Positions 115 to 24,367 of a DNA stretch of 38,413 nucleotides are shown here, in pieces (the first letter of the stretch is position 1; the number at the start of each line of letters is the position of its first letter). Origin of the DNA: Armatimonadota bacterium (GTDB lineage Bacteria; Armatimonadota; Zipacnadia; Zipacnadales; UBA5352); assembly GCA_034722055.1 (NCBI GenBank), contig JAYENL010000120.1, positions 1 through 38,413 of the forward strand. The letters are read 5' to 3'. Under the pieces are notes generated by a model. The model saw nothing but the letters and a program-made list of their open reading frames with translations, ran no database searches and was not told the DNA's origin. A program made the translations under genes and the position numbers.

Positions 115-2673
115 CTACATGTCGAATGTGACCGTCTGCACGCCTGGAGGCACGTTCAGCTCCCGCGTCTTGATGTTCAGGGTGGCCCCCTGCTCCGACT
201 CGATGACCATGCTCAGGCGGTCCTCGGACCATGACAGGTTCGTCACGACTGCCTCGCCAGCGCTTGGCGTGAGAGTGACGGGCAGGCGCTCGAGGATGAC
301 CATTCGCCCCTCGCCAATCTCGACCTCCACGCGGGCCTCCTCCCCCACGCGCGTGGGGAAGTCGAGGTCGGTGAGCATGCCCTCGGCGTCGAAGTGCATC
401 ACGCGTGCCAGCGCCCGCTCCCCGTGCCAGCCGTAGCTGCCGGAGTGTGTGACGATGATGCGCTCCTCGCCGAGCATGTAGCCGGGGTGGATCTCGATGG
501 GCGTGAAGGGGAACAGGTGGGGTTGCACCTGGTGGTCGTAGAGGCTCCAGTGCGTGGCGACAGGCAGGCTGGCGAGGTTGATGGCGCGCACGAACTTGTC
601 GAAGGAGAGGTAGCTGCTGAGATACCCCAGCGGCGTGTCCAGGTTGCCCTCGTAGCACCAGACGTCGTTGTGCTGGATCTCCACCATGCGCGGCACCTGC
701 ATCGCCAGCAGCGCACGGACGGCGGTGGGCCCGTTGCCCATCACCATGCCGCCCAGCTCCCGGGCGCGCTCGACGACCGCGATGCGGTGCTCGCGGCCCA
801 GCAGCGTCGTCACGCCCACGCGGTGGTCGATCTCGTGCGTCTCCGGGTCGAGCACGCAGGAGTAGCCATCGTGCGTGTTGTGCGTGACCAGCGGCGAGCC
901 GAAGGCCACGTTCTCCATCTCGTCCCAGTAGAGACCATCCACGTTCATCTGCTCGAAGTACTCATCCACCGCGTCTACCATGGCCGTGCCGAAGGAGTTC
1001 TCGAGCGTGGCCACCATGTTCCAGGTCAGCGAGTAGCGGCCGCCCCACTCCGTCGAGAGCTGCTGGCCCCCCGCGTTCACCAGCCGGCTGTCCGGGTAGC
1101 GCCGGTCGGCATCGGGGTAGCTGTCGCGCTGGGTATCGTAGTAGACCAGGCAGGTGACGCCCGGCCTGGCCTGGTGGAGCTTGTCGATGGCCAGCCGCAG
1201 CCGGCGCCGGAAGTCAGCCCAGTCCTCATCGAGCACGTAGGTCCCGAAGCCGATGGTCTTCTGCTGCTTGGTGTCCTTGAGGCGGTCCACCCAGCCGCCG
1301 CAGTAGATGAGGTAGTCCAGCTTCTGGCGGTCGAGCTGCTCGCGCAGCTCCTCCAGCGGCGTCTCGATGACGCTGTCGGGGCTGAAGAAGCCCCACGGCC
1401 CGGGGCAGGCGTAGTCCGAGCCCCAGTCATCGCGCACCGCGTTGATGAAGTCGAAGTAGTCCTCCGAGGCCACCGGGTAGACCGACCACCGCAGCGTGTA
1501 CTCCCCGCCCTCAGGCAGCCACAGCATCTCAGTGCGCATCGCCGCCGCGTTCTCGTCTGCGTCATACAGCAGCGTGGCCTGGTTGCGGTAGACGTCGTCC
1601 TCGCAGACCATGCCCAGCCCGTGGCCCTCGCCGGCGACGTAGACGGTCGGGTTGGCGGGGGCGTAGTAGCTCTCGCGCGACGGATCCGGGCTGCCGGCGA
1701 GGTGGATACGCCGGTCGCTGTCGAGCAGCACGCGGTTGTCCACGATCAGGCCCAGCTCTGCCTCGCGCAGGTTCACCCAGGTGTCGGCCACCTCGATCCT
1801 GCCATCGGCGAGGCTGACCGACCGGCGCAGCTCGTAGTCCGGTCCGCGGCCGACGATGAGCGGGTCCTGCCCGGCGCGCAGTGACGTGTGCCACTGCGGC
1901 TGGCCCTCGGCAGTCGCCTCCGGTCTCGCCTCCAGGCGGTTGAAGCCGCCTCCCGGGTAGCTCACCAGCGTCTCGACGGGATAGCCCGTCCCGCCCACGG
2001 TGATCTCAAAGCCACCCGTGTTGAAGGCGTCGAACTCGTACTCCGCAGGCCCGGCCAGCGGCTCGCCGCGGTTGATGGGCTGGCTCATGACATCCGCTGC
2101 CCGCAGCATGGGACTCTCGCCCTGCTCCGTCCGCAGGCGCATCATCCCGATGATCAGCGGAATGTCGCCCTCAACGCGCGCAGCCAGGGCCGGCGTGCCG
2201 ATGTGCCGCGCGGTCACCGTGTTCTCTGCCTCGGCGCTCAGCAGGTCGGTGATGTCCAGGACGAAGCGGTAGGCCTCACCCTGATAGCGCGGCTGATCGT
2301 TGCAGACCTCGAAGTCGGGGGCGTAGACGATCCGCCACTGCCCGCTCCGTGCCCACCGCAGCGTCAGCTCCGGGCTGTGCTGGAAGCTCAGCGGCTTGTT
2401 GCGCAGTCGGCTGAGGCGCCGCGTCTTCGCCGCCGTAACCCGCTCACCGTTGACCAGCAGCCCCAGCATGAAGGTAGAGCCGGAGGGCGTAGGCGCATCA
2501 GTGCGGGCGGTCAGCTCCAGCAGCGCCGTCCGGCCCTCCGTCGGCACCGGGCCGACCGTCCACTCGCGCTGGGATTGCAGCTCGACGGGCCGCGGCTCGG
2601 TCACGATCTCGACGTCCTGGGCAGCGGCGGCACCGGCCACGCAGACTATCGCCGCGCACACACGCACTATCAT
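115..2673 (-). CDS. Large secreted protein, putative glycoside-hydrolase-like (TIM-barrel) enzyme
   Basis: 852 aa with a signal peptide (MIVRVCAAIVCVAGAAAAQ), host-like codon usage and a DGLYWDE motif typical of GH-like barrels. Exact family not recognised. Confidence 0.6.
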   Translation of the reverse strand: MIVRVCAAIVCVAGAAAAQDVEIVTEPRPVELQSQREWTVGPVPTEGRTALLELTARTDAPTPSGSTFMLGLLVNGERVTAAKTRRLSRLRNKPLSFQHSPELTLRWARSGQWRIVYAPDFEVCNDQPRYQGEAYRFVLDITDLLSAEAENTVTARHIGTPALAARVEGDIPLIIGMMRLRTEQGESPMLRAADVMSQPINRGEPLAGPAEYEFDAFNTGGFEITVGGTGYPVETLVSYPGGGFNRLEARPEATAEGQPQWHTSLRAGQDPLIVGRGPDYELRRSVSLADGRIEVADTWVNLREAELGLIVDNRVLLDSDRRIHLAGSPDPSRESYYAPANPTVYVAGEGHGLGMVCEDDVYRNQATLLYDADENAAAMRTEMLWLPEGGEYTLRWSVYPVASEDYFDFINAVRDDWGSDYACPGPWGFFSPDSVIETPLEELREQLDRQKLDYLIYCGGWVDRLKDTKQQKTIGFGTYVLDEDWADFRRRLRLAIDKLHQARPGVTCLVYYDTQRDSYPDADRRYPDSRLVNAGGQQLSTEWGGRYSLTWNMVATLENSFGTAMVDAVDEYFEQMNVDGLYWDEMENVAFGSPLVTHNTHDGYSCVLDPETHEIDHRVGVTTLLGREHRIAVVERARELGGMVMGNGPTAVRALLAMQVPRMVEIQHNDVWCYEGNLDTPLGYLSSYLSFDKFVRAINLASLPVATHWSLYDHQVQPHLFPFTPIEIHPGYMLGEERIIVTHSGSYGWHGERALARVMHFDAEGMLTDLDFPTRVGEEARVEVEIGEGRMVILERLPVTLTPSAGEAVVTNLSWSEDRLSMVIESEQGATLNIKTRELNVPPGVQTVTFDM

Positions 2674-2749: not shown

Positions 2750-4204
2750 TCAGGGCACCACGGGCTCGAAGGCCCCGCAGCTTGGGGGATCGGGCCTTGG
2801 CCGGCCGAGGAAGTCGTGCGTCACCGCGGGCCGAACATCGGTGGCGCTGAGGGTCTCGGCTGTGCCGGCGCCCGCCGCCGGCGACTCCAGCAGGATGCGG
2901 TAGTCGCCGGCCTCCGCATCGACGAAGCGGGGATCGCGCTGTGCCAGCGTGCTGTGGAGGTCGAAGCCGGCCTCGCGCCATCGCTCCCAGGTGTCGATCT
3001 GGGGGGTATTGCCGGTGCGCGGGGTCAGCCAGTGGCCGGGCGGCGGCATCAGGTAGAGGAAGAAGTCGGGGCGGAGCACGTGGACGTCCTGATGGGGCGT
3101 CTCGCCCATGGACTCGTAGATGTCCGACTGCGCCGCGGCCGAGTGCAGCAGGCAGTTGCGGAAGTACTTCGGCCCCTCGCGGTAGTGCATGACGTGGAAG
3201 TAGCCCTTGTTGCGGTTGAAGACGTAGGTCTCGTGCACCCGCCAGTTCTCCCAGCCGGTGTGGTAGTCGGTGAGGCTGCTATCGACGTAGACGTTATTGC
3301 ACCACAGCAGCGCGCAGGAGGCGCTGCCCTCAGCGCCGTTGGTCTTGACGCGGTGGCAGTCCCTGAAGACGCAGCGCTCGATGCGGTGCAGGTGGTCCTG
3401 ATATGCGGCGTCATTGCGGCGGTGCGAGTCGTCGAGCGCCGAGTCCGCCTCCCAGCTTTCGAACCAGCAGTTGAAGACGATGCCGTCCGCGGGCGCGTGG
3501 AAGAGGATGCCATCGTGATTGTGGACGGGGTCGGTCAGCCCGTAGTCGTGCACGTAGCAGTTCTGGATGACGCCGAAGCGCAGCTCCCTGGGGTCCTGTG
3601 CCCACAGCATGCCCGGCCGCCGCTCCTCCTCATCCCATCCGGCGCCGTTGTTGATGAAGATGCCCGGCCCGCAGCGGTAGCCGGCGGCGTCGCCGCCGAA
3701 GTCGATGCCGGCGATCTCGACCCCGTCGATGAAGTACTCCTCGCAGCCCTCGATCCGAATGAAGGCCCGGCCGCAGGTGCCCGCCAGGTAGCAGTCCCTG
3801 ATCTCAACGCGGCCGCAGGACTCGAAGAAGAAGGTCGAGGATGCCCGCCAGTCGGGATGATTCTGGATGATCGCCATGTCCTCGATCCGCACGGTCTCGC
3901 AGTTGCGGAACAGGTAGAGCGTGTGCCGGTACTTGTCGCACTCCGGCTTCTGCCACGTGACGCGCAATCGCTCGCCGGAGACGGTGACCTCCTGCTTATC
4001 CACGAAGCTGCGCCGGGCCTGCCCACCGGCGACGTCCTGGAAGTCATAGCTCGCGGGGTCGTGTGCGCCCAGCTCCCGGCCGGTGGGCAAGGCGGCCCAG
4101 TCGGACTCGTAGGCCTGTGAGTAGCGGCCGTGCTCGGGGATCAGACCATCGGCGCAGGCCGCGGTGCAGAGGGCCACCAGCACCAGCGCACACGCACACC
4201 TCAT
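2750..4204 (-). CDS. Secreted right-handed beta-helix protein with a choice-of-anchor-Q-like C-terminus
   Basis: Signal peptide; parallel beta-helix-type repeats (IRDC, IQNCYVHD, IVFNCWF, IERCVF); C-terminal DPRFVD..GDYR....SPA..AG...DFLGRPR...SCGAFE. GAGGAGG RBS. Confidence 0.7.
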   Translation of the reverse strand: MRCACALVLVALCTAACADGLIPEHGRYSQAYESDWAALPTGRELGAHDPASYDFQDVAGGQARRSFVDKQEVTVSGERLRVTWQKPECDKYRHTLYLFRNCETVRIEDMAIIQNHPDWRASSTFFFESCGRVEIRDCYLAGTCGRAFIRIEGCEEYFIDGVEIAGIDFGGDAAGYRCGPGIFINNGAGWDEEERRPGMLWAQDPRELRFGVIQNCYVHDYGLTDPVHNHDGILFHAPADGIVFNCWFESWEADSALDDSHRRNDAAYQDHLHRIERCVFRDCHRVKTNGAEGSASCALLWCNNVYVDSSLTDYHTGWENWRVHETYVFNRNKGYFHVMHYREGPKYFRNCLLHSAAAQSDIYESMGETPHQDVHVLRPDFFLYLMPPPGHWLTPRTGNTPQIDTWERWREAGFDLHSTLAQRDPRFVDAEAGDYRILLESPAAGAGTAETLSATDVRPAVTHDFLGRPRPDPPSCGAFEPVVP

Positions 4205-4229
4205 GGGCGGAGACCTCCTCGGTGGCGCG

Positions 4230-4303
4230 GCTACAGCGGGGCGATGAGGACCGTGGCCTGGGCAGCGATCCCCTCCCCGCGCCCCTCGAAGCCCAAACGC
4301 TCG
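4230..4303. repeat. Direct repeat copy 1: displaced duplicate of the ispDF 3' end (att-like)
   Basis: 68/74 nt identical to 6851-6924. Encodes the same peptide [23 protein letters not shown] on the - strand. Confidence 0.92.
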
Positions 4304-4380
4304 ACTTGAGCCGAGCAGCTATCGCTCAGGACAGGAGCTGCATCTTGTGCACGCGGGAAGCGCCGCGCGGCCGCGCCCAG

Positions 4381-5181
4381 TCAAGCACCACTCTGAGGGC
4401 CGGGACGGGCGTCAATGGGAGCGGGCCGTCCCAGCGCGGAGAGTATCGAGCGGAAATCATCGACGTTCGTGGTGCAGACACGCGCGCCGCTTGGACACTG
4501 GAGTGTAATGATCGCATCGGCGAGAACTCCGAAGCAATTCCTACCGCGCGCAGCATCTGGGTTTTCGATCACTTCACGGGCCACCTGTCGGAAACACCGG
4601 TGGACTGTCTTGTCGAGCTCGGCTGGTCCATCTGCCAGACGAGCCAGTTCCTCACTTCGAGCGGTGAGGAACTCGGTGATGCGGCACTGAGGTGGATCCG
4701 ACCGCCGACATCTCCTCGACGCCTTGTAGGTACGCCCGTCCCACCTGTCAACATCCTCGGTCCGCGTGCATTCGATACACTCGGGAAGGCTTTCTACACC
4801 CTCAAGCAGATCGCTCATGAGCCGATCATCGATCCACATCTCCAAGTACCAGAGGAACCCGGCATCGTCTTCATCCGGCGGGCGGTTTCGCCAGAAACGC
4901 GCGACCAACTGCATGGCTCGCTGCTGTTCTCTCAGGTTCGGGTAATGTGACGCGCGGGCCAAAGCTTCACCAACATCTCCATCACTGTCCACAATCAGCT
5001 TGTGCATGCGCGCGAAAACGAAAAGGAACGTCGCTCTCAACTCATGGACGACGTACTCGCATACGACGGGACGGCCGGAGGCCAAGGCCTGCTCTGCCGC
5101 CTTTCTTCCGCGACTGTCGTCGAAGCGACGAGCGGCGAGGACGCTGGTATCGGCGTGGAGTTGGCACGAAGGACCGACCAC
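4381..5181 (-). CDS. PIN-domain-like putative ribonuclease with a Cys-rich insertion
   Basis: PIN motifs appear in order: ADTSV (first Asp), YVVHEL (Glu), LADAII (Asp), TTNVDDF. The insert carries CIEC, C-x6-C and further Cys. GTG start. Confidence 0.65.
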   Translation of the reverse strand: MVGPSCQLHADTSVLAARRFDDSRGRKAAEQALASGRPVVCEYVVHELRATFLFVFARMHKLIVDSDGDVGEALARASHYPNLREQQRAMQLVARFWRNRPPDEDDAGFLWYLEMWIDDRLMSDLLEGVESLPECIECTRTEDVDRWDGRTYKASRRCRRSDPPQCRITEFLTARSEELARLADGPAELDKTVHRCFRQVAREVIENPDAARGRNCFGVLADAIITLQCPSGARVCTTNVDDFRSILSALGRPAPIDARPGPQSGA

Positions 5182-5196
5182 GTGGATCGCCCCCCG

Positions 5197-5826
5197 TCAC
5201 GACTCGACTTCGGGTACATAGTCCAGATCGTGAGACCGCAGGACATCTGCGAGCTCATCCAAGTCTACCGGCCTGCCCTCAAGCAGTTCGGCGCAATCGG
5301 CAGTCGCCTGCAGTTGGGATTCGCTCATGTCTTCAGCATGCTCCAGCCCCACTGCCCACTTGATCATTGTGGCGGCGTGCTGAAGGTCCCGTGCTCCTCT
5401 GGCGTGTGCAACGTCCACCAGTTCGCTAAGAGCCCGCTTAAGCTCCATCACAGCGTCCAGGCGGTCGTCAAGATTGTGTGCACTGCTGGCGGCGTTGGCC
5501 GCCACGATCGTGCGTGTTACGACCTCTCCTATCGAGCCCGCGTCATCGTCTGGCTCCCAGCTCTCGAATGTTGTCGACGCGAAATCCGCCAGGGCGTTGC
5601 GGAACGCAACATCCCTTCTTGCCGCATCATACAAGATGCGCCGGACCTCGTCCTCCGCATCGGGGTGCGCAAAAAGCCACCGGATGACGCCAGCAGCTCC
5701 GGATCTGGTGCCTTCCTGGCCCATGAGCAGCTGGAGTACTAGCTGGGAGCGGTCTGCCAGTTCCACAGCGTCATCGGCATGGGGCACACGCCCCAACATC
5801 TCCCCTAATCCTCGTGGCGTCCGCAT
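5197..5826 (-). CDS. Hypothetical acidic, all-helical protein
   Basis: 209 aa ORF with a GGAGGAG RBS overlapping the end of the upstream gene. Gaps to its neighbours are 6 nt and 15 nt. Confidence 0.7.
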   Translation of the reverse strand: MRTPRGLGEMLGRVPHADDAVELADRSQLVLQLLMGQEGTRSGAAGVIRWLFAHPDAEDEVRRILYDAARRDVAFRNALADFASTTFESWEPDDDAGSIGEVVTRTIVAANAASSAHNLDDRLDAVMELKRALSELVDVAHARGARDLQHAATMIKWAVGLEHAEDMSESQLQATADCAELLEGRPVDLDELADVLRSHDLDYVPEVES

Positions 5827-5832
5827 GAGCGT

Positions 5833-6495
5833 CTACTCCTCCCCTTCTGCACGTCGAAGCTCTTCTCGGATGAGGCGGAGGCGGCGAAGCATGTGGTCGA
5901 GATCAGTCAAGGTGCAGGTGACGGCCAGGTCATCGGGAGCTCGTCTGCTGATAAGATCAGCGATCCAGTTGCCGGAAATGGGCCGGGCGGCCACTTCAGC
6001 ACAGAACCTTACGACTGCGGCCGCGGTGGTCGGCGCAGTATCTCCCGATCTCCCAGGCTTCACGAGTTGCCAGTCAAGATACCAGAATGGTGGGATTACA
6101 GCGCTTCTCCTCGCACGGTGCTCCGCGGCTATGCGATTCACGGGGAAGCGCCTTCCGACCTCACCTGCCCTTGCGATCACCGTGTTCTGCTCCTCCTCTT
6201 CGAGATCCTCGAAGCCGGGCGCCTCGAGAAGAGCCGCCTGGGACATGCCCAGAACTTGAGACGTGAGCAGGACGTCCAGCTCGCCATCCACAATCTCCCG
6301 GTAACGCTCAAGGGTGAGATCCGTGCGGTCAAGAGCTTCCCTCGCGCGATCGTTCTCGACGGTAATCTCGACACCAGAAACGACCGTCGGCCTCACTTCG
6401 AAGTGCCCTGCCTCGTGCAGGCGCAGCGAGACGTCGAGCGCGCAGGCGAACTCCTCGTCCGTGGACAGATCGCTCTTGCCATCCTCCTTGGGCAT
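5833..6495 (-). CDS. Hypothetical protein with a C-terminal COMM-domain-like region
   Basis: 220 aa. C-terminus IPPFWYLDWQL...AAAVVRF...DDLAVTCTLTDLDHMLRRLRLIREEL matches the COMM pattern: P-x(5-6)-W, beta strands, terminal amphipathic helix. The ORF is well supported; the domain call is by eye. Confidence 0.6.
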   Translation of the reverse strand: MPKEDGKSDLSTDEEFACALDVSLRLHEAGHFEVRPTVVSGVEITVENDRAREALDRTDLTLERYREIVDGELDVLLTSQVLGMSQAALLEAPGFEDLEEEEQNTVIARAGEVGRRFPVNRIAAEHRARRSAVIPPFWYLDWQLVKPGRSGDTAPTTAAAVVRFCAEVAARPISGNWIADLISRRAPDDLAVTCTLTDLDHMLRRLRLIREELRRAEGEE

Positions 6496-6850
6496 AATCC
6501 AGCCGCCTTTCGCTCCGCGCCATCGTGCCCCATGCGCACTAATTCAGCTCCCGGCCAGTATGACCCCCGCCACCGATCTACAATCGCTTAGGACTATTCC
6601 GTAGTTCCTCTTACGACTTATGTGTTCGGGTGTGATCCCAAGAAGCCTTCTGCGTCCTGAGAAGGCTATTGGGCAACTCCGTTAGCAGCGACTTCAACCC
6701 GGCTACGATCTCTGACGTTTCTTGGCCTCTGCGGTTCGCGAATGGTTGCTTCGTACGGCGAGCGGTTCTGCGCCGTGATACTCTTCCTTGAACGTTGCAC
6801 GATTCCTTCCCCACACTGGCCCAGAATGCATGGAGGCACAGAAGGTCTCA

Positions 6851-6924
6851 GCTACAGCGGGGCGATGAGGACGGTGGCCTGGGCGGCGATGCCCTCCCCG
6901 CGGCCCTCGAAGCCCAGCCGCTCG
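6851..6924. repeat. Direct repeat copy 2: current 3' end of ispDF (att-like)
   Basis: 68/74 nt identical to 4230-4303. Confidence 0.92.
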
Positions 6925-8027
6925 GTCGTCGTGGCCTTGACGCTCACCGCGGACGCGTCGATGCCCAGCGCCGAGGCGATCTTGGCGCGCATGGCGTCGA
7001 TATGCGGCGCCAGCTTCGGGCGCTGGCAGATGACGGTGGCGTCCACGTTCGCCGGTCTGAAGCCCTGGTCGGCCAGCATCTTCACCACGCGCGCAGCAAG
7101 CTCTGCGCTGTCGGCGCCGGCGTATCGGGGGTCGCTGTCGGGGAAGTGAGTGCCGATGTCGCCCAGCGCCGCCGCCCCCAGCAGGGCGTCGCTGATGGCG
7201 TGGAAGAGCACGTCGGCGTCGGAGTGCCCCGCCAGCCCGCGTTCGTGCTCGACGCGCACGCCACCGAGGATCAGAGCACGGCCCTCCGCGAAGGCGTGGA
7301 CGTCGTAGCCGGTGCCCACCCGCATGGCGGATACCTCCCGGCCGGCGCGGCGGCGCAGCAGCCACTCGGCCCGCGCCAGGTCCTCGCGCGTGGTGATCTT
7401 GAGGTTATCGCGATGGCCCTCGCTGAGGTAGACGGGATGCCCCATGCGCTCCACGAGCTGAGCGTCGTCGGTGACGTCGAGCCCCTCGCGGGGAGCCCGC
7501 TCGTAGGCCTCCATCAGCAGGTCGTAGCGGAAGGTCTGAGGGGTCTGGGCGTGGTAGAGCTCACCGCGTGGTGGCGTGTCCTCGATGCGGCCGTCGGGCG
7601 CACAGCGCTTGATGGTATCGGTGGCCGGGACCGCCGCGATGGCCGCCCCGCGCCGCAGAGCCACGTCGATAGAGCGCTCGATGGTACCCCGGTCCACCAG
7701 CGGCCGGGCGCCGTCGTGCACGCAGACGATCTCCGGGGAGCGCTCGCGAAGCGCCTCCAGGCCGGCCCGGACGGATTCGGGGCGCTCCTGGCCGCCTGGA
7801 ACGATGCCCACGAGCCTGGGGTCGTCCTCCGCGATCTCCGCGGCACGGTCGAGGAGGTCCGGCGGGACGACCAGCACGATGGCGCTCACCCGCCCGCAGG
7901 CGGTGTACGCCTGCAGGGACCACTGGAGCATGGGTCTGCCGCCCAGGGGGACGAAGACCTTGGGGATGGGGCCGCCGAAGCGCGTGCCGCGCCCCGCGGC
8001 CGCAATGACGGCGGCTGCCTCCGGCAC
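6852..8027 (-). CDS. ispDF: Bifunctional IspD/IspF (MEP cytidylyltransferase / MEcPP synthase)
   Basis: IspD motifs [24 protein letters not shown] and NLKITT. IspF motifs GYDVH, GHSDADV, GDIGTHF and [18 protein letters not shown]. Confidence 0.95.
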
Positions 8028-8030
8028 GCC

Positions 8031-9134
8031 TCAGTCTCCCTCGTCCGAGTCCGCTTCCTCGTCCTTGGCCCGGCCCTTGACCTCGGCGAACAGCATCTTG
8101 CCGGCGTTGGTCTGCAATACGCTGGTGACCATGACGATGAGGGTCTCTCCCACCATCTTGGAGGCCTTCTCGACCACCACCATGGTGCCGTCGTCCAGGT
8201 AGCCGACCCCCTGACCGGGCTCCTTGCCCTCTTTGATGATGGTGACGGTGACCTCCTCGCCGGGCAGGAAGGTGGGCCGCATGGCCCCGGCCAGCTCGTT
8301 GACGTTAAGCACCCGCACGCCCTCCAGGGAGGCGATGCGGTTGACGGAGTAGTCGTTGGTGACCACCGCCGAGCCGGTGCGGGCGGCCAGGTTCACCAGC
8401 CGGGCGTCCACCTCCATGTGCTCCCGGGGCGGGTTGGGATCGTGGTAGATGATGACATCGGTGTCCTGGAGGGCCTTGAGGCGGTTGAGCACGTCCAGCC
8501 CCCGCCGGCCGCGCTCGCGCTTGAGGCCCTCCGCGGAGTCCGCGATGTGCCTCAGCTCCTGGAGGATGAAGTTCGGGATGCAGATGGGACCCTCGATGAA
8601 GCCTGTGGCGCAGATCTCATAGACGCGCCCATCAATGATAATGTTGGTGTCAAGCATCTTGGTGCCCGGGGGGAGGCTTGAGTCCACGCTCTTACCAAGC
8701 TGCGCCAGGCCCGGGAAGACGTAGACGAGCTGCTCCTTGGCGCTCATGGCGAAGATGACGCCGAGGATGGCGCCGATGATGCTGGCGAAGATCTGGATCG
8801 GCAGCCCGTACTGCAGCGATGAGAACGGCACGGTCGCCAACAGAGCCACGGCCAGCCCGACGGTGACGCCCACGGCCGCAGCCGCCTTGTCCAGCAGCGG
8901 CACCGCCTCCATGTGCTGCAGCCACCCGATGAGCTTGCGGAACAGGAACAGCGAGACCAGGAAGCCGATGAGACCGAAGATGGTATTGACGCCCACGAGG
9001 AAGTAGGTGTAGTCCGTGCCGGCGTCCTCCCCCAGCAACCGCGCGCCGGCGATGCCTCCGACCCAGTGCCCGATCAGCACGAATGCGAATGTGATCGCCG
9101 CAACGAACAGGAACCACAACCAGCGAATGAGCAT
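8031..9134 (-). CDS. Membrane-anchored PIN/TRAM domain protein (YacL family)
   Basis: Four TM segments; LDTNIIIDGR, ELRHIADS...RGRRGLD, VTNDY, GKEPGQGVGYLDDGTMVVVE, VTSVLQT.AGKMLF. Sits upstream of ispD as in the conserved clpC-yacL-ispD-ispF neighbourhood. Confidence 0.92.
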   Translation of the reverse strand: MLIRWLWFLFVAAITFAFVLIGHWVGGIAGARLLGEDAGTDYTYFLVGVNTIFGLIGFLVSLFLFRKLIGWLQHMEAVPLLDKAAAAVGVTVGLAVALLATVPFSSLQYGLPIQIFASIIGAILGVIFAMSAKEQLVYVFPGLAQLGKSVDSSLPPGTKMLDTNIIIDGRVYEICATGFIEGPICIPNFILQELRHIADSAEGLKRERGRRGLDVLNRLKALQDTDVIIYHDPNPPREHMEVDARLVNLAARTGSAVVTNDYSVNRIASLEGVRVLNVNELAGAMRPTFLPGEEVTVTIIKEGKEPGQGVGYLDDGTMVVVEKASKMVGETLIVMVTSVLQTNAGKMLFAEVKGRAKDEEADSDEGD

Positions 9135-18613: not shown

Positions 18614-20011
18614 ATGCATGCCTCGCACAGCAAGCCCTCGTGGGGCATCATGGATGAGATGACGCTGACGCTTCCGGTGCAGACCTGGACGCCCAAGAAC
18701 GGGGTGGTGAAGGCTACCGGCGACGACATCATCCTCCACCACGCCGATGATACCTCCCACACCATCTCCTGGAACATCATCCACCACGTGGGCGATGGCA
18801 TCGATCCGCGCTTCACGGTTACCGTGGACATCTACGACCTGCAGGGCAACGCGGTCGCCCAGCTTACCCAGGAGGACGTTGAGACCGGCGAGGGTAACCT
18901 GGCGTGGGACACAGATCTTCCCGAGGAGAACGGCATCTACACCTACCGCATCAGCGCGGCGCACGAGGACGGCCCGCCGGCGCTGGTGTGCGGCCCCGAG
19001 CCCGACAAGTCCTGGCGGCTGGAGATCAGCGATGTGAGCGTTTCGGACTTCGCCTGGATTGACGGTCCCCCAACCGAGGCGTCGGTAACCTTGCACTACG
19101 AATTGAACCGGGAGGCGGGTGCCTGCGACTTGGACATCTACAACCATGATCTGGAGCAGGTCAGCATTATCGAGCCTGCCGGGGGCGGCCAACTCGACCC
19201 GGGCAATGGCGCGCACCAGTGCACCGTGGAGTTCAAGGACCCAGACCAGATCGTGGGAATCTACAGGTTCGTGGTTTCCGCATTGGAGACTGATGCAGAT
19301 GGGCAAGAGAACAGAGACCAGCAGCCCAAGCTGACGCTACAGACGGGCAGCACTATCGTCAAATGGCCTAAAGCCTATAACGTGCCTGGCGAGGGCGGCA
19401 GCTCAGCGAGCTTTGCCGCAGCCGTCAACACCTCTTGCTACTACCAGTCCCACGGCGGCGACGGCACACAGTACTCCGCGCAGGTCGGGCGGGCTGTTGC
19501 TTCCACCACCTACGAGGCCTTCGACAACTGCGCCGTCTTCCAGTACATCGGTCATGCCGCTGCGAACCATTGCGCGCTTCAGCAGGTCGTCAACCATCAC
19601 CAACTGCGAGGCGGGACGGCGGGCGAGAACCCCAACGACAACGATTCGGTCAACGACATCTATTACCTGGAAAAGAAGGCGGATGGCGCGCTGGAGTTAT
19701 GTAGATTCGTGTTCTTTGTCGGCTGTCACACTGCAGCCGACAACGCTGCTGGTTCCAACCTACTGGATGCCGCCAGTGACAAAGGCGTGGACTGCAGTGC
19801 GGGGTTTGAAGGCGATCTATATGTATGGGCGATGTCCGAAGGCATCCCGCTGTTCTGGGATTACGTGATGTCTGACGGCGCGTATGTGGACGCCGCGGCG
19901 ATACAGGTGATATTCGATCTCCGAGACGAAAACGACGGAGACGACGGCGGATGGGGCACGTACGCGTCAAGAGACAACGTGACGCTGTTACCTGCCAAGT
20001 GGGGGGAGTGA
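18614..20011 (+). CDS. Cassette A: FlgD-Ig-like N-terminal module plus caspase/gingipain-like (His-Cys) peptidase-like C-terminus; start uncertain (18614 or 18650)
   Basis: VTVDIYDLQGNAV...LAWD...GIYTYRISA is FlgD-Ig-like. C-terminal VFQYIGHA...FVFFVGCHT...GVDCSAGF...FWDY follows the caspase-hemoglobinase-fold pattern. No signal peptide. Confidence 0.6.
   Translation: MHASHSKPSWGIMDEMTLTLPVQTWTPKNGVVKATGDDIILHHADDTSHTISWNIIHHVGDGIDPRFTVTVDIYDLQGNAVAQLTQEDVETGEGNLAWDTDLPEENGIYTYRISAAHEDGPPALVCGPEPDKSWRLEISDVSVSDFAWIDGPPTEASVTLHYELNREAGACDLDIYNHDLEQVSIIEPAGGGQLDPGNGAHQCTVEFKDPDQIVGIYRFVVSALETDADGQENRDQQPKLTLQTGSTIVKWPKAYNVPGEGGSSASFAAAVNTSCYYQSHGGDGTQYSAQVGRAVASTTYEAFDNCAVFQYIGHAAANHCALQQVVNHHQLRGGTAGENPNDNDSVNDIYYLEKKADGALELCRFVFFVGCHTAADNAAGSNLLDAASDKGVDCSAGFEGDLYVWAMSEGIPLFWDYVMSDGAYVDAAAIQVIFDLRDENDGDDGGWGTYASRDNVTLLPAKWGE
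18641..18708 (+). repeat. 68-bp exact repeat (also at 23364-23431)
   Basis: tggggcatcatggatgagatg...aagaacggggtggt is identical at both sites and encodes WGIMDEMTLTLPVQTWTPKNGV. Confidence 0.93.
18722..19020 (+). repeat. ~300-bp repeat shared with 21018-21331 (conserved cassette module)
   Basis: Contains a 101-bp identical block (18758-18858 = 21054-21154). Both copies encode IILHHADDTSHTISWNIIHH...CGPEPDKSWRL. Confidence 0.93.
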
Positions 20012-20105
20012 GGTTTGAAATGGCCGGCGGTCCGGTGGCCCTTGCAGCACGGGCGCCACGGCGTATCACAACACACTGAGTGATCGCGAGCTTGGAGGTG
20101 AAGTC

Positions 20106-20924
20106 ATGACGACACGCCGCAAGGTCCTGATCGGAGGATGTCTCGTCTTAGCCGCCGCGGTAACCGCCTGGCTCGCATTCTCTGCCCAGGAGGAGCTCGA
20201 CCAGAGAATCAGGGAGATTACTTACCACTTCCTTGACGTAACGCCGCAGTCCATCGAGAAGCTCACGAGAGAGCGCCGGGGGCGCCATCAGCACCGTGTC
20301 GAAGTCTCGTATACCCCCGCCCCATCCGATCAGCAGTCCGTCGCCCGGCGCGCCAGCCTGGACGTTGACACCCAGCTTGGCTACGTGACGCGCGCACGAT
20401 GGCCCGAAGCATATGTGTGGGAGGCGAAAGGAGACGCCGCCGGCGAGCATGAGCTTCTGCCGATTGCCAGGAGATTCGCGGAGCGTCACTGCCCCTTCTG
20501 GACGGAGCAGTTCACGCTTGAGGAGCACAGGGGTTTCCCGCGGAATGAGCCGAGTGCCTACCTGTTCACATGGCTCCTGCGCGCTGAAGATGATGCCGCT
20601 ATCGGCAGAGTCATGATTGCGGTCTGCGCACAGAACAAGGAGGTCTTCTCCTATGCCTGCTCATACGCGCCACCTGAGCAGATGACCACGGCATCGGTCA
20701 CCCGCATGGAGGCGATGCGAACCGCACGCGAGCTGCTGACAGACAGGCATGGCGCCGCTGCACAGATAGACGATGTCACCTTCAGCCACCACATGAAGAA
20801 GTACGATGCACCCGTCTGGACCATCGACTTCCACGTGTCGCAGGAAGGCATGGAAACGTGGTACGACGCGGTGTTCATCGACGCGCGAAACGGGAAGGTG
20901 CTCTACCCCACCGACGAGTATTAG
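20106..20924 (+). CDS. Exported/membrane-anchored PepSY-like (YcdB/YcdC-like) protein, partner of cassette A
   Basis: N-terminal hydrophobic anchor; C-terminal VTRMEAMRTARE...VWTIDF...FIDARNGKVL PepSY pattern; GGAGGTG RBS. Confidence 0.7.
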   Translation: MTTRRKVLIGGCLVLAAAVTAWLAFSAQEELDQRIREITYHFLDVTPQSIEKLTRERRGRHQHRVEVSYTPAPSDQQSVARRASLDVDTQLGYVTRARWPEAYVWEAKGDAAGEHELLPIARRFAERHCPFWTEQFTLEEHRGFPRNEPSAYLFTWLLRAEDDAAIGRVMIAVCAQNKEVFSYACSYAPPEQMTTASVTRMEAMRTARELLTDRHGAAAQIDDVTFSHHMKKYDAPVWTIDFHVSQEGMETWYDAVFIDARNGKVLYPTDEY

Positions 20925-20993
20925 TGGAGAACACTGGGGACTCGAAGTCCCAAGTAGCTCGGACTGACCGCGTTGGCACAGAGTTACAACTGA

Positions 20994-22505
20994 AAGAATG
21001 CCAGTGTCACCACCAGTGACGAGATCATCCTGCACCACGCCGATGACACCTCGCACACCATCTCCTGGAACATCATCCACCACGTGGGCGATGGCATCGA
21101 TCCGCGCTTCACGGTTACCGTGGACATCTACGACCTGCAGGGCAACGCGGTCGCGCAACTCACCGAGGAGCACGTTGCGGCGGACGAGCAGGGCGAGATT
21201 GCCGGTGAGATTGATTGGGACACGGATCTCCCCGAGGAGAGCGGCATCTACACCTATCGCATCAGCGCGCAGCACGAGGACGGCCCGCCGGCGCTGGTCT
21301 GCGGCCCCGAGCCCGACAAGTCCTGGCGGCTCACAACGTCAGTGGACAGCTTCTACTACTCCGAGGCCAACCCGGAGACAGGGGTGCTCAGCGGGGCAGT
21401 CAGATACACGATGAACCGCGCCGCCGGATCTGTCGAATTGCAGTTCTGCGGTCCCGAGCTGACCACTCTGGGAACCCTGACCGGCCAGCCGACCGATGCC
21501 GGGTCGAGCTGGAGCGACGTCTACACGTTGACCGGCGTGGAATTCGATGAGGACGACGAGCCGATCGGCCCGATCTACTGTGTGCTCTTCGCCGACGAGA
21601 GCGCGGAGGACGCCGCCCAAAACCGCGACGGCCTCGCCAAACCGGCGCTGGAGAGGGGCAGCACGAATCTGGTGCGCGCGCTCGAGATCCTGGAGCCTGA
21701 CGAGAACCCCGTGACGGACAACAACTTCGTGTTCGACGACGCCGCAGACCCCAACGGTGCGTGTCAGGTGGCAGCGACCGGCACTACGCACGGGGTCTTG
21801 CCGCAAGCTGACCTGGAGTGGGAGCTCGACACCATCCAGGGCTCCACACTGACCAGCGATCCTGATCCACCCAAGGGGCAGACGATCACTTTCACCTACA
21901 CCCGGCTGCCCAGCTCCAACAGCGAGTTCGGGAACAAGGTGCTCACACTCTCGCACTCACAGGTCCCGTGCGAGGACACGCAGACAGTGCAGATCTTCTT
22001 CCCGCGCGATGCAACGAACCATCCGGGGCCTGACACGGGTGTCACACCAAACTGGTACTATTACTGGTCGGACGCCGGTGCGGACACCGGCTCCCACCAA
22101 TACGACCCGAATTCGGGTTCAGACGGATACTATCAGTTCGGGGATCCCCATTTCCACATTGGGCCAGGGGCGTGCGAGCAGGATGAGGGCTTGGTCGTAA
22201 TGGGTGATGGCATCGACAACTTCGGCTCGACCTGCCTTCACGAGAAGGCACACATGGACTACTACTTCGACGAGTGGGATCCGTACGACCGCAACTTCGA
22301 TCTCGACCGCGACTTCATGCACGACAATGACGAGCCGACTAAGACAGGCCTCGACGGCAACCCGTATGACCCGACCCAACAAGACACCAACTTCGACGGC
22401 TATTGGGATGGCGAGGACTGGGCCTGCAAGGCAGAGCAGACGTGGCAGATGGGATCGTTCGACGCTGTTGACTGGGCGAGTCCAGGCCATCAGAGCGCTC
22501 AGTGA
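20994..22505 (+). CDS. Cassette B: same N-terminal module plus an HExxH metallopeptidase-like C-terminus; lacks a proper start (orphan cassette)
   Basis: The frame opens after TGA 20991-20993 with KNASVTTSDEIILHH..., homologous to cassette A. The first usable start (GTG 21084) lies inside the homology block. Contains TCLHEKAH and Asp-rich DLDRDFMHD and DTNFDGYWD Ca-binding-like motifs. Confidence 0.6.
   Translation, partial: KNASVTTSDEIILHHADDTSHTISWNIIHHVGDGIDPRFTVTVDIYDLQGNAVAQLTEEHVAADEQGEIAGEIDWDTDLPEESGIYTYRISAQHEDGPPALVCGPEPDKSWRLTTSVDSFYYSEANPETGVLSGAVRYTMNRAAGSVELQFCGPELTTLGTLTGQPTDAGSSWSDVYTLTGVEFDEDDEPIGPIYCVLFADESAEDAAQNRDGLAKPALERGSTNLVRALEILEPDENPVTDNNFVFDDAADPNGACQVAATGTTHGVLPQADLEWELDTIQGSTLTSDPDPPKGQTITFTYTRLPSSNSEFGNKVLTLSHSQVPCEDTQTVQIFFPRDATNHPGPDTGVTPNWYYYWSDAGADTGSHQYDPNSGSDGYYQFGDPHFHIGPGACEQDEGLVVMGDGIDNFGSTCLHEKAHMDYYFDEWDPYDRNFDLDRDFMHDNDEPTKTGLDGNPYDPTQQDTNFDGYWDGEDWACKAEQTWQMGSFDAVDWASPGHQSAQ
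21018..21331 (+). repeat. Second copy of the conserved cassette module
   Basis: Aligns with 18722-19020 with a short internal divergent segment and a 15-nt indel. Confidence 0.93.
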
Positions 22506-22543
22506 TGCGACGCCACGGCACGTGCAGAAGGGAGGCGACTGAG

Positions 22544-23260
22544 ATGGGTAGATGGATGATGTTGTTGCTGCTCCTCCTCGGGTTCGTGGTCGGTTGCCGG
22601 GACGAGCAGGAAACGCAGAGCCGGACTGACCCGCGGCAGGCCGCAGGTGAGCTCGCTCTGCCGGCCGCGCCAGGAGGCGAGGTGTCGCCGGAGGAGGTCA
22701 CCAGACTCATAGACCAGTTGGGCAGCACCAAGTTCTCGGAGCGCATCTCGGCGGCGCTTCGGCTGGGCAAGTCCGGTGCGCCTGAGGCCGCAAGCGCCCT
22801 GCTGGCCGCTCTTCGCGACGAATGTGCTCTATCAGACCGGCAGGTAGAGGCGCGCAACATGGAGGGTCCTGGGCTCACGCCCGCGGTGGCCAGCGGCTTC
22901 GTAAAGGGCGCTTACCAGATGGGACTGTGGAAGCTCGGACCCCAAGTTCGCGAGGAAGTGCAGGGTGAGCTTGCTAGAGCCGACGGGGAGTTCCACGACT
23001 GGCTCGTCATCGTCCTCGGCTATCTCGGCGATAAGGAGCAACTGGAGCCGCTGATGACGTTGGCGCAGGGGAGCCCGGATGGGTTCGTGCGCGAGGCCGC
23101 GGCCCGCGCTCTGGGCCATCTGGGCAGGGCCGAGGCCATCCCTGTACTGCAGGACGCCCTCAACGATCCATTCGTGGTCCAGATGCACGATGTTCGTATA
23201 CCCCTCGTACGCGAAGCCGCCCGGGCGGCCCTGCGGCAGTTGGGCGCGCAAGAGCAGTAG
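22544..23260 (+). CDS. HEAT-repeat (PBS-lyase-like) lipoprotein, partner of cassette B
   Basis: MGRWMMLLLLLLGFVVG-C lipobox-like signal; repeats ERISAALRLGK, VREAAARALGHLG and VREAARAALRQLG; GGGAGG RBS. Confidence 0.78.
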   Translation: MGRWMMLLLLLLGFVVGCRDEQETQSRTDPRQAAGELALPAAPGGEVSPEEVTRLIDQLGSTKFSERISAALRLGKSGAPEAASALLAALRDECALSDRQVEARNMEGPGLTPAVASGFVKGAYQMGLWKLGPQVREEVQGELARADGEFHDWLVIVLGYLGDKEQLEPLMTLAQGSPDGFVREAAARALGHLGRAEAIPVLQDALNDPFVVQMHDVRIPLVREAARAALRQLGAQEQ

Positions 23261-23363
23261 CATGCGCCGAGTGCGGGTGGCCGCAGGAGGGCCTGTGCCC
23301 CCCGGCCGTGTGTGCGCGACCCTCAATGGGGCCTTGCCGTGGCGGGCGAAAGTACACCTGTTC

Positions 23364-23431
23364 TGGGGCATCATGGATGAGATGACGCTGACGCTTCCGG
23401 TGCAGACCTGGACGCCCAAGAACGGGGTGGT
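23364..23431 (+). repeat. Remnant of a third cassette head (68-bp exact copy of 18641-18708)
   Basis: Exact repeat, followed after about 75 nt by the second PepSY-like gene with no effector C-terminus in between. Confidence 0.9.
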
Positions 23432-23506
23432 CAATGCAATGCCTCGGGGAGGGGCGCCAGACTCCATGACAACACAGAGACAAGTTGCGAGCCAGGAGGC
23501 AAGGTC

Positions 23507-24367
23507 ATGAGCGCACCTCGCATGGCGCTGATCGGAGGATGTCTGGTCTTCGCCGCAGCAGTAACCGGCTGGATCGCATTCTCTGCCGAGCAGGAGCATG
23601 ACCACAGAGGCAGGAGGATGACCTCCCACCTGATTGACGTCACGCAGCCGGATCCTCGGCACGTGGTCGCTCAAGCACTGGCAGTCAAAGAGGATGCGGT
23701 GCGCATCCAGAGGATCAGCCACAAGGAGGGCGGCCGAGAGGTGGTCGTCCAAGCCACGGTCCTTGACGGGGAGCACGAGCGCGTCAAGGTCACCTACAAC
23801 GCTGAGACTCGGTTCCTACGCCGCGTTTTCTGGCCGGACAGAAGGGTCTCCGAGCCCGAGGACACGCGGATCCCGATGGAGGAGGCGCTGGAGCAGGCGA
23901 AGCGACTGAAGGCGCGACTCTTCCCTCCCGTCCCGGTGAGGATGCAGCTTGTCGAGAGGGCAAGACGCGATCAGCCACCCTTTTACACTTTCATCTGGCA
24001 GGCACGCGCCGCGCCGGGCGTGTACACGGGGGATATGGTGTCGGTGCTTATCTCAAGCATAACCGGCGAGCCCATCTCCTACGTGCAGAGGGTCGCGAAG
24101 GTGCGTCCCGAGCTCGAAGACATCGACGTTGGGAGGGACAGGGCGATGGCGATTGCGCGGGAGCATCTGCACGGTCGGTACGATTCGCCGGTCGAACTGT
24201 CGCTCGATGAGCCCAGGCTGATGCTGAGCTCCCCGATACACCCGGACGAGGGTTCCGTGTGGATCGTGGATTTCGACGTGAAGCCCTCCGGCGACAGACA
24301 GCCGATGGGCACGATGGAGCGCGCTTGAGCCGTGATCGACGCCATGTCCGGCGAGGTGCTGCAATGA
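23507..24367 (+). pseudogene. Second PepSY-like exported protein with an in-frame TGA at 24326-24328
   Basis: The N-terminus is paralogous to 20106 (LIGGCLV.AAAVT.W.AFSA). After the TGA the frame continues AVIDAMSGEVLQ*, the IDAxxG motif seen in the paralog (FIDARNGKVL). Confidence 0.7.

Follow-up and report, generated by a model that had tools for sequence, protein, structure and literature searches.

The analysed window is a 38,413-nucleotide stretch from the assembly of an Armatimonadota bacterium (contig JAYENL010000120.1). It contains three co-oriented open reading frames on the minus strand, here called A, B and C, with intergenic gaps of 6 nt (A-B) and 15 nt (B-C), exactly as the original prediction had placed them. 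A GGAGGAG motif lies upstream of the ATG of gene B (5826). The genes and the features that delimit them are:

5833-6495, minus strand: gene A, 220 aa, predicted COMMD-like protein with a variant HN domain as well as a COMM domain.
5197-5826, minus strand: gene B, 209 aa, with a lineage-specific N-terminal part of ~100 residues and a conserved C-terminal helical domain.
4381-5181, minus strand: gene C, 266 aa, GTG start, predicted VapC-fold PIN nuclease with a ~130-residue insertion.
4230..4303, minus strand: displaced original ispF 3' end, a 74-nt stretch with 6 differences relative to the working copy; the distal cassette boundary.
6851..6924, minus strand: working ispF 3' end, the proximal copy of the direct repeat.
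6496..6850, minus strand: foreign leader, 355 nt from the ispF stop to gene A.
6852..8027, minus strand: host ispDF, the insertion target gene, which lies outside the system.

The atypical composition reported earlier was borne out. GC3 of A, B and C is 0.70, 0.66 and 0.65, compared with 0.83-0.92 in the six flanking genes, and the GC content of the island is 0.608 versus 0.684 for the genome (only 0.7% of 2242 genome windows of island size have a GC content of ≤0.61). The proposed att-like repeats are real as a direct repeat of 74 nt (92% identity, 4230-4303 and 6851-6924; local score 118, compared with 30 for the best of 200 shuffles), but the repeat is the duplicated last codons of ispDF, and no integrase-sized ORF lies between its copies. 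An apparent extension beyond 74 nt was rejected on comparison with relatives. We identified the 4230-4303 copy as the displaced original ispF end because it is followed by the native spacer, as in the same-genus genome G049. The site is empty in close relatives (17 loci examined): ispDF is directly followed by a homologue of window gene 2750-4204 in four family members, including G049, and by a homologue of window gene 115-2673 in four further relatives. Duplicated gene ends flanked two of the eight cassettes tested (the window and genome G046). The cassette is a mobile, integrase-less element that sits behind a duplicated gene end.

The foreign leader had no significant match elsewhere in the genome, and no sigma70-like promoter was found in it; the window holds no tRNA. 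Contigs from two runs of one study, one run being possibly the source of the window, spanned the cassette and both junctions. No excision joint was seen in contigs from four DNA runs of one study, although contigs show presence only, and no RNA dataset carrying the cassette was listed. In one run, the contig differed from the window at six positions within 3700-7052, all of them inside gene A (5833-6495); the matching database variant of A has three residue changes, too few to show selection.

Several further observations concern the surroundings of such cassettes. In the same-family A-B-C locus of G046 (L134, contig C799), a duplicated gene end of 40 nt (85%; 639-678 and 3111-3148) appears by eye to come from a sulfatase-like gene; the cassette lacks an integrase and seems to enclose part of a further host gene. 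In genome G070, another member of the taxonomic order of the window, the cassette (L132, contig C49, 5729-7733) occupies the same isomerase-ilvE-clpC neighbourhood as that of the window, at a different site. Upstream of ispDF, the window carries a host membrane PIN-TRAM gene (8031-9134, minus strand), presumably yacL, which is an ordinary conserved neighbour. Long direct repeats (74-197 nt, 75-97%) at 18641-23648 lie between paralogous coding stretches.

Gene A, earlier called COMM-like, is COMMD-like by its predicted fold and its profile. Using a model built with 34 homologues (pLDDT 84.3), Foldseek placed COMMD9 first (E 4.6e-5) among seven human COMMD chains that reached E≤0.001, and it also matched 9q6a, a COMMD-like octamer from bacteria, at E 3.4e-3; the target TM to the COMM domain of COMMD9 (6bp6) was 0.64. 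Full-length COMMD chains took ranks 1-4 in VIA-align at modest Z scores of 5.6-6.6, and the matches of the HN domain to those of COMMD9 (4nkn, Z 4.8) and COMMD10 (Z 4.6) were likewise modest. The A profile matched the COMM domain at E 0.038, and one homologue (L059) exceeded the Pfam COMM_domain cut-off (23.0 vs. 22.4). In the model, the COMM domain (137-218) comprises three strands (137-145, 159-166, 189-194) and a long helix (196-218), while the variant HN domain carries an extra beta-hairpin (32-46). By analogy with the prokaryotic proteins described in PMC13392464, A would be expected to assemble into dimers that close into rings of 8-10 subunits. The protein is acidic (net charge -14 in the window; negative in 17/20 homologues), and its homologues are 12-36% identical to it. 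Single-sequence searches gave one relative each, the sole relative of A being a strain variant. A fold search of BFVD with A gave no match at E≤0.001, and an Atlas search gave no more than weak COMM leads for A and nothing usable for B. Separately, an archaeal locus (L148) holds a COMMD-looking gene (1465-2175, minus strand) with a weak A-profile match (E 1.5e-4), a 201-aa gene (878-1480, minus strand) with an unstructured-looking N-terminus and, by eye, a winged-helix-looking end, and a 184-aa ORF (323-874, minus strand). No B, C or clear Pfam match was found among these three genes, and the locus is possibly another COMMD-led cassette with a different effector.

Gene C was recognised in the original prediction as a PIN nuclease with a Cys-rich insertion, and its AF2 model (pLDDT 94.6) agrees. 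The best structural match is VapC21 (5sv2; VIA-align Z 9.4, rmsd 3.2, 133 aligned), and PIN or PIN-containing proteins fill the top 21 VIA-align rows. Foldseek returned nothing for the C model at E≤0.001; in an HMM alignment with VapC 7by2 (E 0.052), the first and last motifs were matched. A two-sequence C profile detected 383 representatives (50% identity) at E≤0.001, and we aligned 112 rows, namely 110 full-length sequences of the 150 listed representatives plus two seeds. It had been claimed that all PIN acidic motifs are present. This is correct for D11, E47 and D222, but the fourth position is approximate, being N239 with D241/D242 after it. Across the 112 homologues, position 11 is D or E in 111, position 47 is E in 95 and Q in 17, D222 is invariant (112/112), and position 239 is N in 83 and D in 28; D/E11, E47 and D222 occur together in 94. 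The ~130-residue insertion consists of a helical and a Cys-rich part, and all four cysteines (C138, C158, C166, C216) are present in 109/112 homologues; to judge by the cysteine pattern, a four-cysteine zinc site probably stabilises the insertion. C would be a metal-dependent RNase.

Only 4/112 C homologues matched Pfam PIN at E≤0.01, since the insertion causes profiles to miss the family. None of the Pfam, NCBIfam and PADLOC models covers C; the PADLOC-DB 2.0 (2023) protein models gave no match for A, B or C, and just six single matches (E 0.004-0.008) among the 112 C homologues. Relatives of C were found neither in viral contigs nor in phage records. C represents an unannotated PIN family, accompanied by a dedicated antitoxin-like domain and by a third gene that can be exchanged.

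The helical character assigned to B applies to its conserved C-terminal domain, predicted to be a folded helical bundle, and its role as the partner of C is upheld by complex prediction. We modelled two A chains with C and B, together with three controls, and scored the prediction for B. Binding of B scored 0.67, compared with 0.01 for the best control, and runs agreed in at least 51% of contacts (partner pLDDT ≥63); with C replaced, the B score was 0.01. The mark used for the score is reached by 116/157 solved complexes and 2/215 mismatched pairs, counts that are roughly valid here. In the confident interface, residues 130-161 and 189-208 of B contact residues 19-23 and 95-124 of C, so that the predicted footprint of B on C is the insertion and excludes D11, E47, D222 and N239; blocking of the active site is therefore not indicated. 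While the modelling thus gave a B-C contact, no confident contact of either A copy with B or C was listed, which is no verdict on binding by A.

The N-terminal part of B behaves differently from its C-terminal domain. In COMMD-led operons, the N-termini align in 4/120 pairs, compared with 70/120 for the C-terminal domain, and are richer in P/S/T/G (0.23 vs. 0.15), yet their disorder proxy is barely higher (0.095 vs. 0.083); that of the window looks helical by eye. No Phd/AbrB/RHH/HTH-type DNA-binding domain was matched in the window B by Pfam or NCBIfam. In other loci, the B domain is fused to a Phd/YefM domain (Pfam; L030, L031, L064, L066-L068, L075, L078, L094), and in L029, B is weakly MazE-like (E 0.006). 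Because of the Phd/YefM fusions in two-gene forms, we infer that C would be a toxic RNase neutralised by B, and B-C is likely a toxin-antitoxin-like pair. An apparent B-C fusion of 454 aa (L006) turned out to be a frameshift in B. In one further sequence (P0093), a C homologue is fused behind an HSDR_N restriction-type domain.

To examine synteny, C homologues were fetched from the class of the window (7/79 genomes), its phylum (8/401), GTDB (10 loci) and metagenomes (the best 80 of 108). The resulting 100 loci were reduced to 65 non-redundant loci at 80% identity of C; they came from motif-seeded scans, and the class proportions given below are therefore biased. B lies directly upstream of C in 63/65 loci, by a B profile partly built from these rows; for one of the two misses the DNA upstream is limited to 52 nt, and for the other the ORF there is unmatched. 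In a first pass, a 19-sequence B profile matched the ORF just upstream of C in 72/80 metagenome loci, some of which are near-copies of its training loci. Among the eight missed, B was later found in two, and four of the other six have <200 nt upstream.

The gene upstream of B varies. An A homologue is found there, in A-B-C order, in 16/65 loci, and one locus (L111) has a more canonical COMMD-like gene over the Pfam COMM_HN cut-off. A TIGR04255-like gene (T) takes this place in 16/65 loci (in L097 it is fused to B), and 2/65 have a DUF4209 gene there. B has a Phd-type N-terminus without a third gene in 10/65 loci, none of which (0/10) has A or a TIGR04255-like gene, and the other 20/65 are short contigs or plain two-gene forms. 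The T family is weakly tied to TIGR04255 (HHalign probability 44.6%; HMM 2.5e-5) and had no PDB match. A true TIGR04255 gene (L037, 6542-7720) lies close behind one T-B-C operon; the next gene encodes 159 aa, with an N-terminus of low complexity and an end that looks like a winged helix. The predicted three-gene synteny exists, but what is conserved at its core is B with C, whereas the upstream position is taken by A or by one of several other genes exchanged for it.

The A-B-C order occurs in the class of the window, in Clostridium, Lachnospiraceae and Methanosarcinales. Searching with A itself gave full-length matches in 5/79 genomes of the window class, all before B-C and all training rows of the profile. 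In the order to which the Methanosarcinales genome G427 belongs, a search of 284 genomes gave two new full-length matches, each with B and C behind it; the C of one (L147) has an internal stop. In Clostridiaceae, the profile matched the training genome alone (1/292 scored, 9 unscored). On a quick tree of C for 54/65 loci (those with too little upstream DNA or a short C were left out), T falls on one side of one branch, Phd needs two changes, and A needs four, of which at least two are forced. The classes are clustered on this tree, hence independent swaps were few, and only a small number of independent events lies behind the finding that A, T and Phd exclude one another. Apart from this, a gene at L007 (2247-2951, minus strand) joins the start of an A homologue to a B domain with no COMM domain (E 3e-6), and by eye L003 (2294-2899, minus strand) is a like hybrid with the COMM domain missing.

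A defence-type gene was found within two genes of the operon in 10/35 loci (L032, L033, L036, L054, L074, L080, L089, L102, L117, L123), a moderate raw count. The expected proximity to defence genes thus holds for these loci, four of which are among the 11 A-type loci examined, but not for the remaining 25/35. Neighbours include RADAR-like, BrxL, PDC-M19, PDC-S31 and HmaA genes, and matches to type III R-M, PDC-S01 and PDC-S39 mark L139 as a defence island. All five A-B-C cassettes of the window class stand by eye among housekeeping or metabolic genes, at different sites. A Scytonema plasmid carries the B-C pair near parA, beside an integrase gene.

When compared with known systems, the operon is closest to VapBC and TAC modules. 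As in VapBC (VapC21, 5sv2; VapBC2, 3zvk; PMC5499597), there is a predicted VapC-like PIN fold with conserved acidic residues and a partner gene directly upstream, homologues of which are fused to Phd/AbrB-type domains. It differs in that C is twice the size, with its helical and four-Cys insertion, that B is a new helical domain predicted to bind this insertion, and that a third gene is often present. As in TAC systems (HigBAC, CmdTAC), there are three genes, with a third component beside a toxin-antitoxin pair and an additional variable extension of the antitoxin where the third gene is present. In contrast with TAC, the third protein has a predicted COMMD fold instead of SecB, the toxin is a PIN protein and the extension is N-terminal. 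As to a disordered chaperone-addiction (ChAD-like) extension, the signs point both ways: the B N-termini are hypervariable, yet in disorder they hardly differ from the conserved domain. In TAC, the chaperone is contested between the antitoxin extension and a phage protein (Mets et al., bioRxiv 10.1101/2024.02.24.581848). The prokaryotic COMMD-like proteins (9q6a, 9q6c; PMC13392464) share with A the HN and COMM domains, the single-gene form and the occurrence in bacteria and archaea, and differ from it in the HN domain, to which a beta-hairpin is added in A. Liu et al. (Nat Commun 2026; PMC13392464) describe T6SS-like neighbours in Myxococcota, with no predicted partner and no function.

The novelty of the combination held up as well. 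In the text and supplements of PMC13392464 we found no PIN, VapC or antitoxin context, although its datasets could list A homologues. No description of the C family was found in the passages covered of the PIN classification by Matelska et al. 2017 (PMC5499597). Literature searches for TIGR04255 and for COMM/COMMD with PIN, defence, toxin-antitoxin or anti-phage gave no paper, although tables of predicted systems could hold the operon. As no Pfam, NCBIfam or PADLOC model or paper covering the system was found, it is apparently an undescribed PIN (VapBC-like) toxin-antitoxin variant with a COMMD-like third component.

The reading that we favour, and consider about evenly balanced between right and wrong, is a mobile three-part type II-like toxin-antitoxin module in which A would gate B and an invader would be the trigger. 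C would be a VapC-fold metal-dependent RNase, and B its cognate antitoxin, the C-terminal helical domain of which is predicted to dock on the helical insertion of C. The N-terminus of B would act as an exchangeable control module: a standard Phd- or AbrB-type DNA-binding domain in two-gene versions, and a hypervariable extension plus the upstream gene in three-gene versions. A, as a ring, may hold or stabilise B through this extension, in a manner comparable to the SecB-like chaperone of TAC systems. A protein of a phage or other invader, as the most likely trigger, would compete for A and free C, which would then cut RNA and arrest the cell. The parts of this reading differ in strength. A is very probably a functional member of the operon; an anti-phage role is a little short of an even prospect; and gating of B by A in the TAC manner, argued by analogy, is possible but on the doubtful side.

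With the same toxin-antitoxin chemistry, the operon could instead be a selfish addiction or stress-dormancy module in which A stabilises the complex without sensing invaders. Most loci lie among housekeeping genes, insertion has occurred at many unrelated sites, one plasmid copy is near parA, and the Phd-type two-gene versions resemble ordinary type II modules. However, bacteria and archaea alike retain a third gene that is costly, several copies adjoin RADAR-like, BREX, PDC and type III R-M genes, and the HSDR_N fusion of C also argues against this explanation, which we judge unlikely. Doubt is greater still for B as an activator, adaptor or structural subunit of a single A+B+C nuclease machine that would stay inactive before its assembly or triggering. 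The predicted contact of B on the insertion, away from the catalytic residues, would suit such a role, as would its folded helical bundle, which is unlike VapB tails. In solved VapBC complexes, these tails are extended. Against this role, at least nine loci have this B domain joined to Phd/YefM antitoxin domains, and the antitoxin-before-toxin gene order is kept.

Separate regulators are found in omega-epsilon-zeta and PaaR-PaaA-ParE systems, and A could likewise be the transcriptional regulator of the operon, replacing the Phd/AbrB DNA-binding domain. That A and Phd-type B never occur together points this way, as does L007, where the N-terminal 70 residues of an A homologue stand at the usual place of Phd; VIA also gave weak matches with Myb and homeodomains (Z≤4.3), but these are within background. 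Given also the acidity of A and that COMMD-like proteins appear to be without nucleic-acid-binding surfaces (PMC13392464, Discussion), we regard this role as improbable. Finally, A might be a passenger beside a two-gene B-C module, as some three quarters of the loci have B-C but no A, and a clade rich in A includes loci where A is missing or shortened (L003, L007). This is scarcely credible, since in the whole-genome searches every full-length A homologue, at 12-36% identity to the A of the window, is found immediately upstream of B-C, only a few bases away.

Returning to the gated toxin-antitoxin module, a broader generalisation, somewhat unlikely in our estimate, is that COMMD rings are modular immune sensors or chaperones: the ring would hold a fast-evolving antitoxin extension, and competition by an invader protein would release a zinc PIN RNase. 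If true, TAC-like logic would operate on a fold from which eukaryotes made the core of Commander, and the TIGR04255-like protein would be an unrelated stand-in in the slot of A. One COMMD-like subfamily is here tied to a predicted nuclease with a simple read-out, growth arrest, and a COMMD-like role is therefore testable in a three-gene construct. So far unexplained microbial COMMD proteins would thereby gain a testable job.
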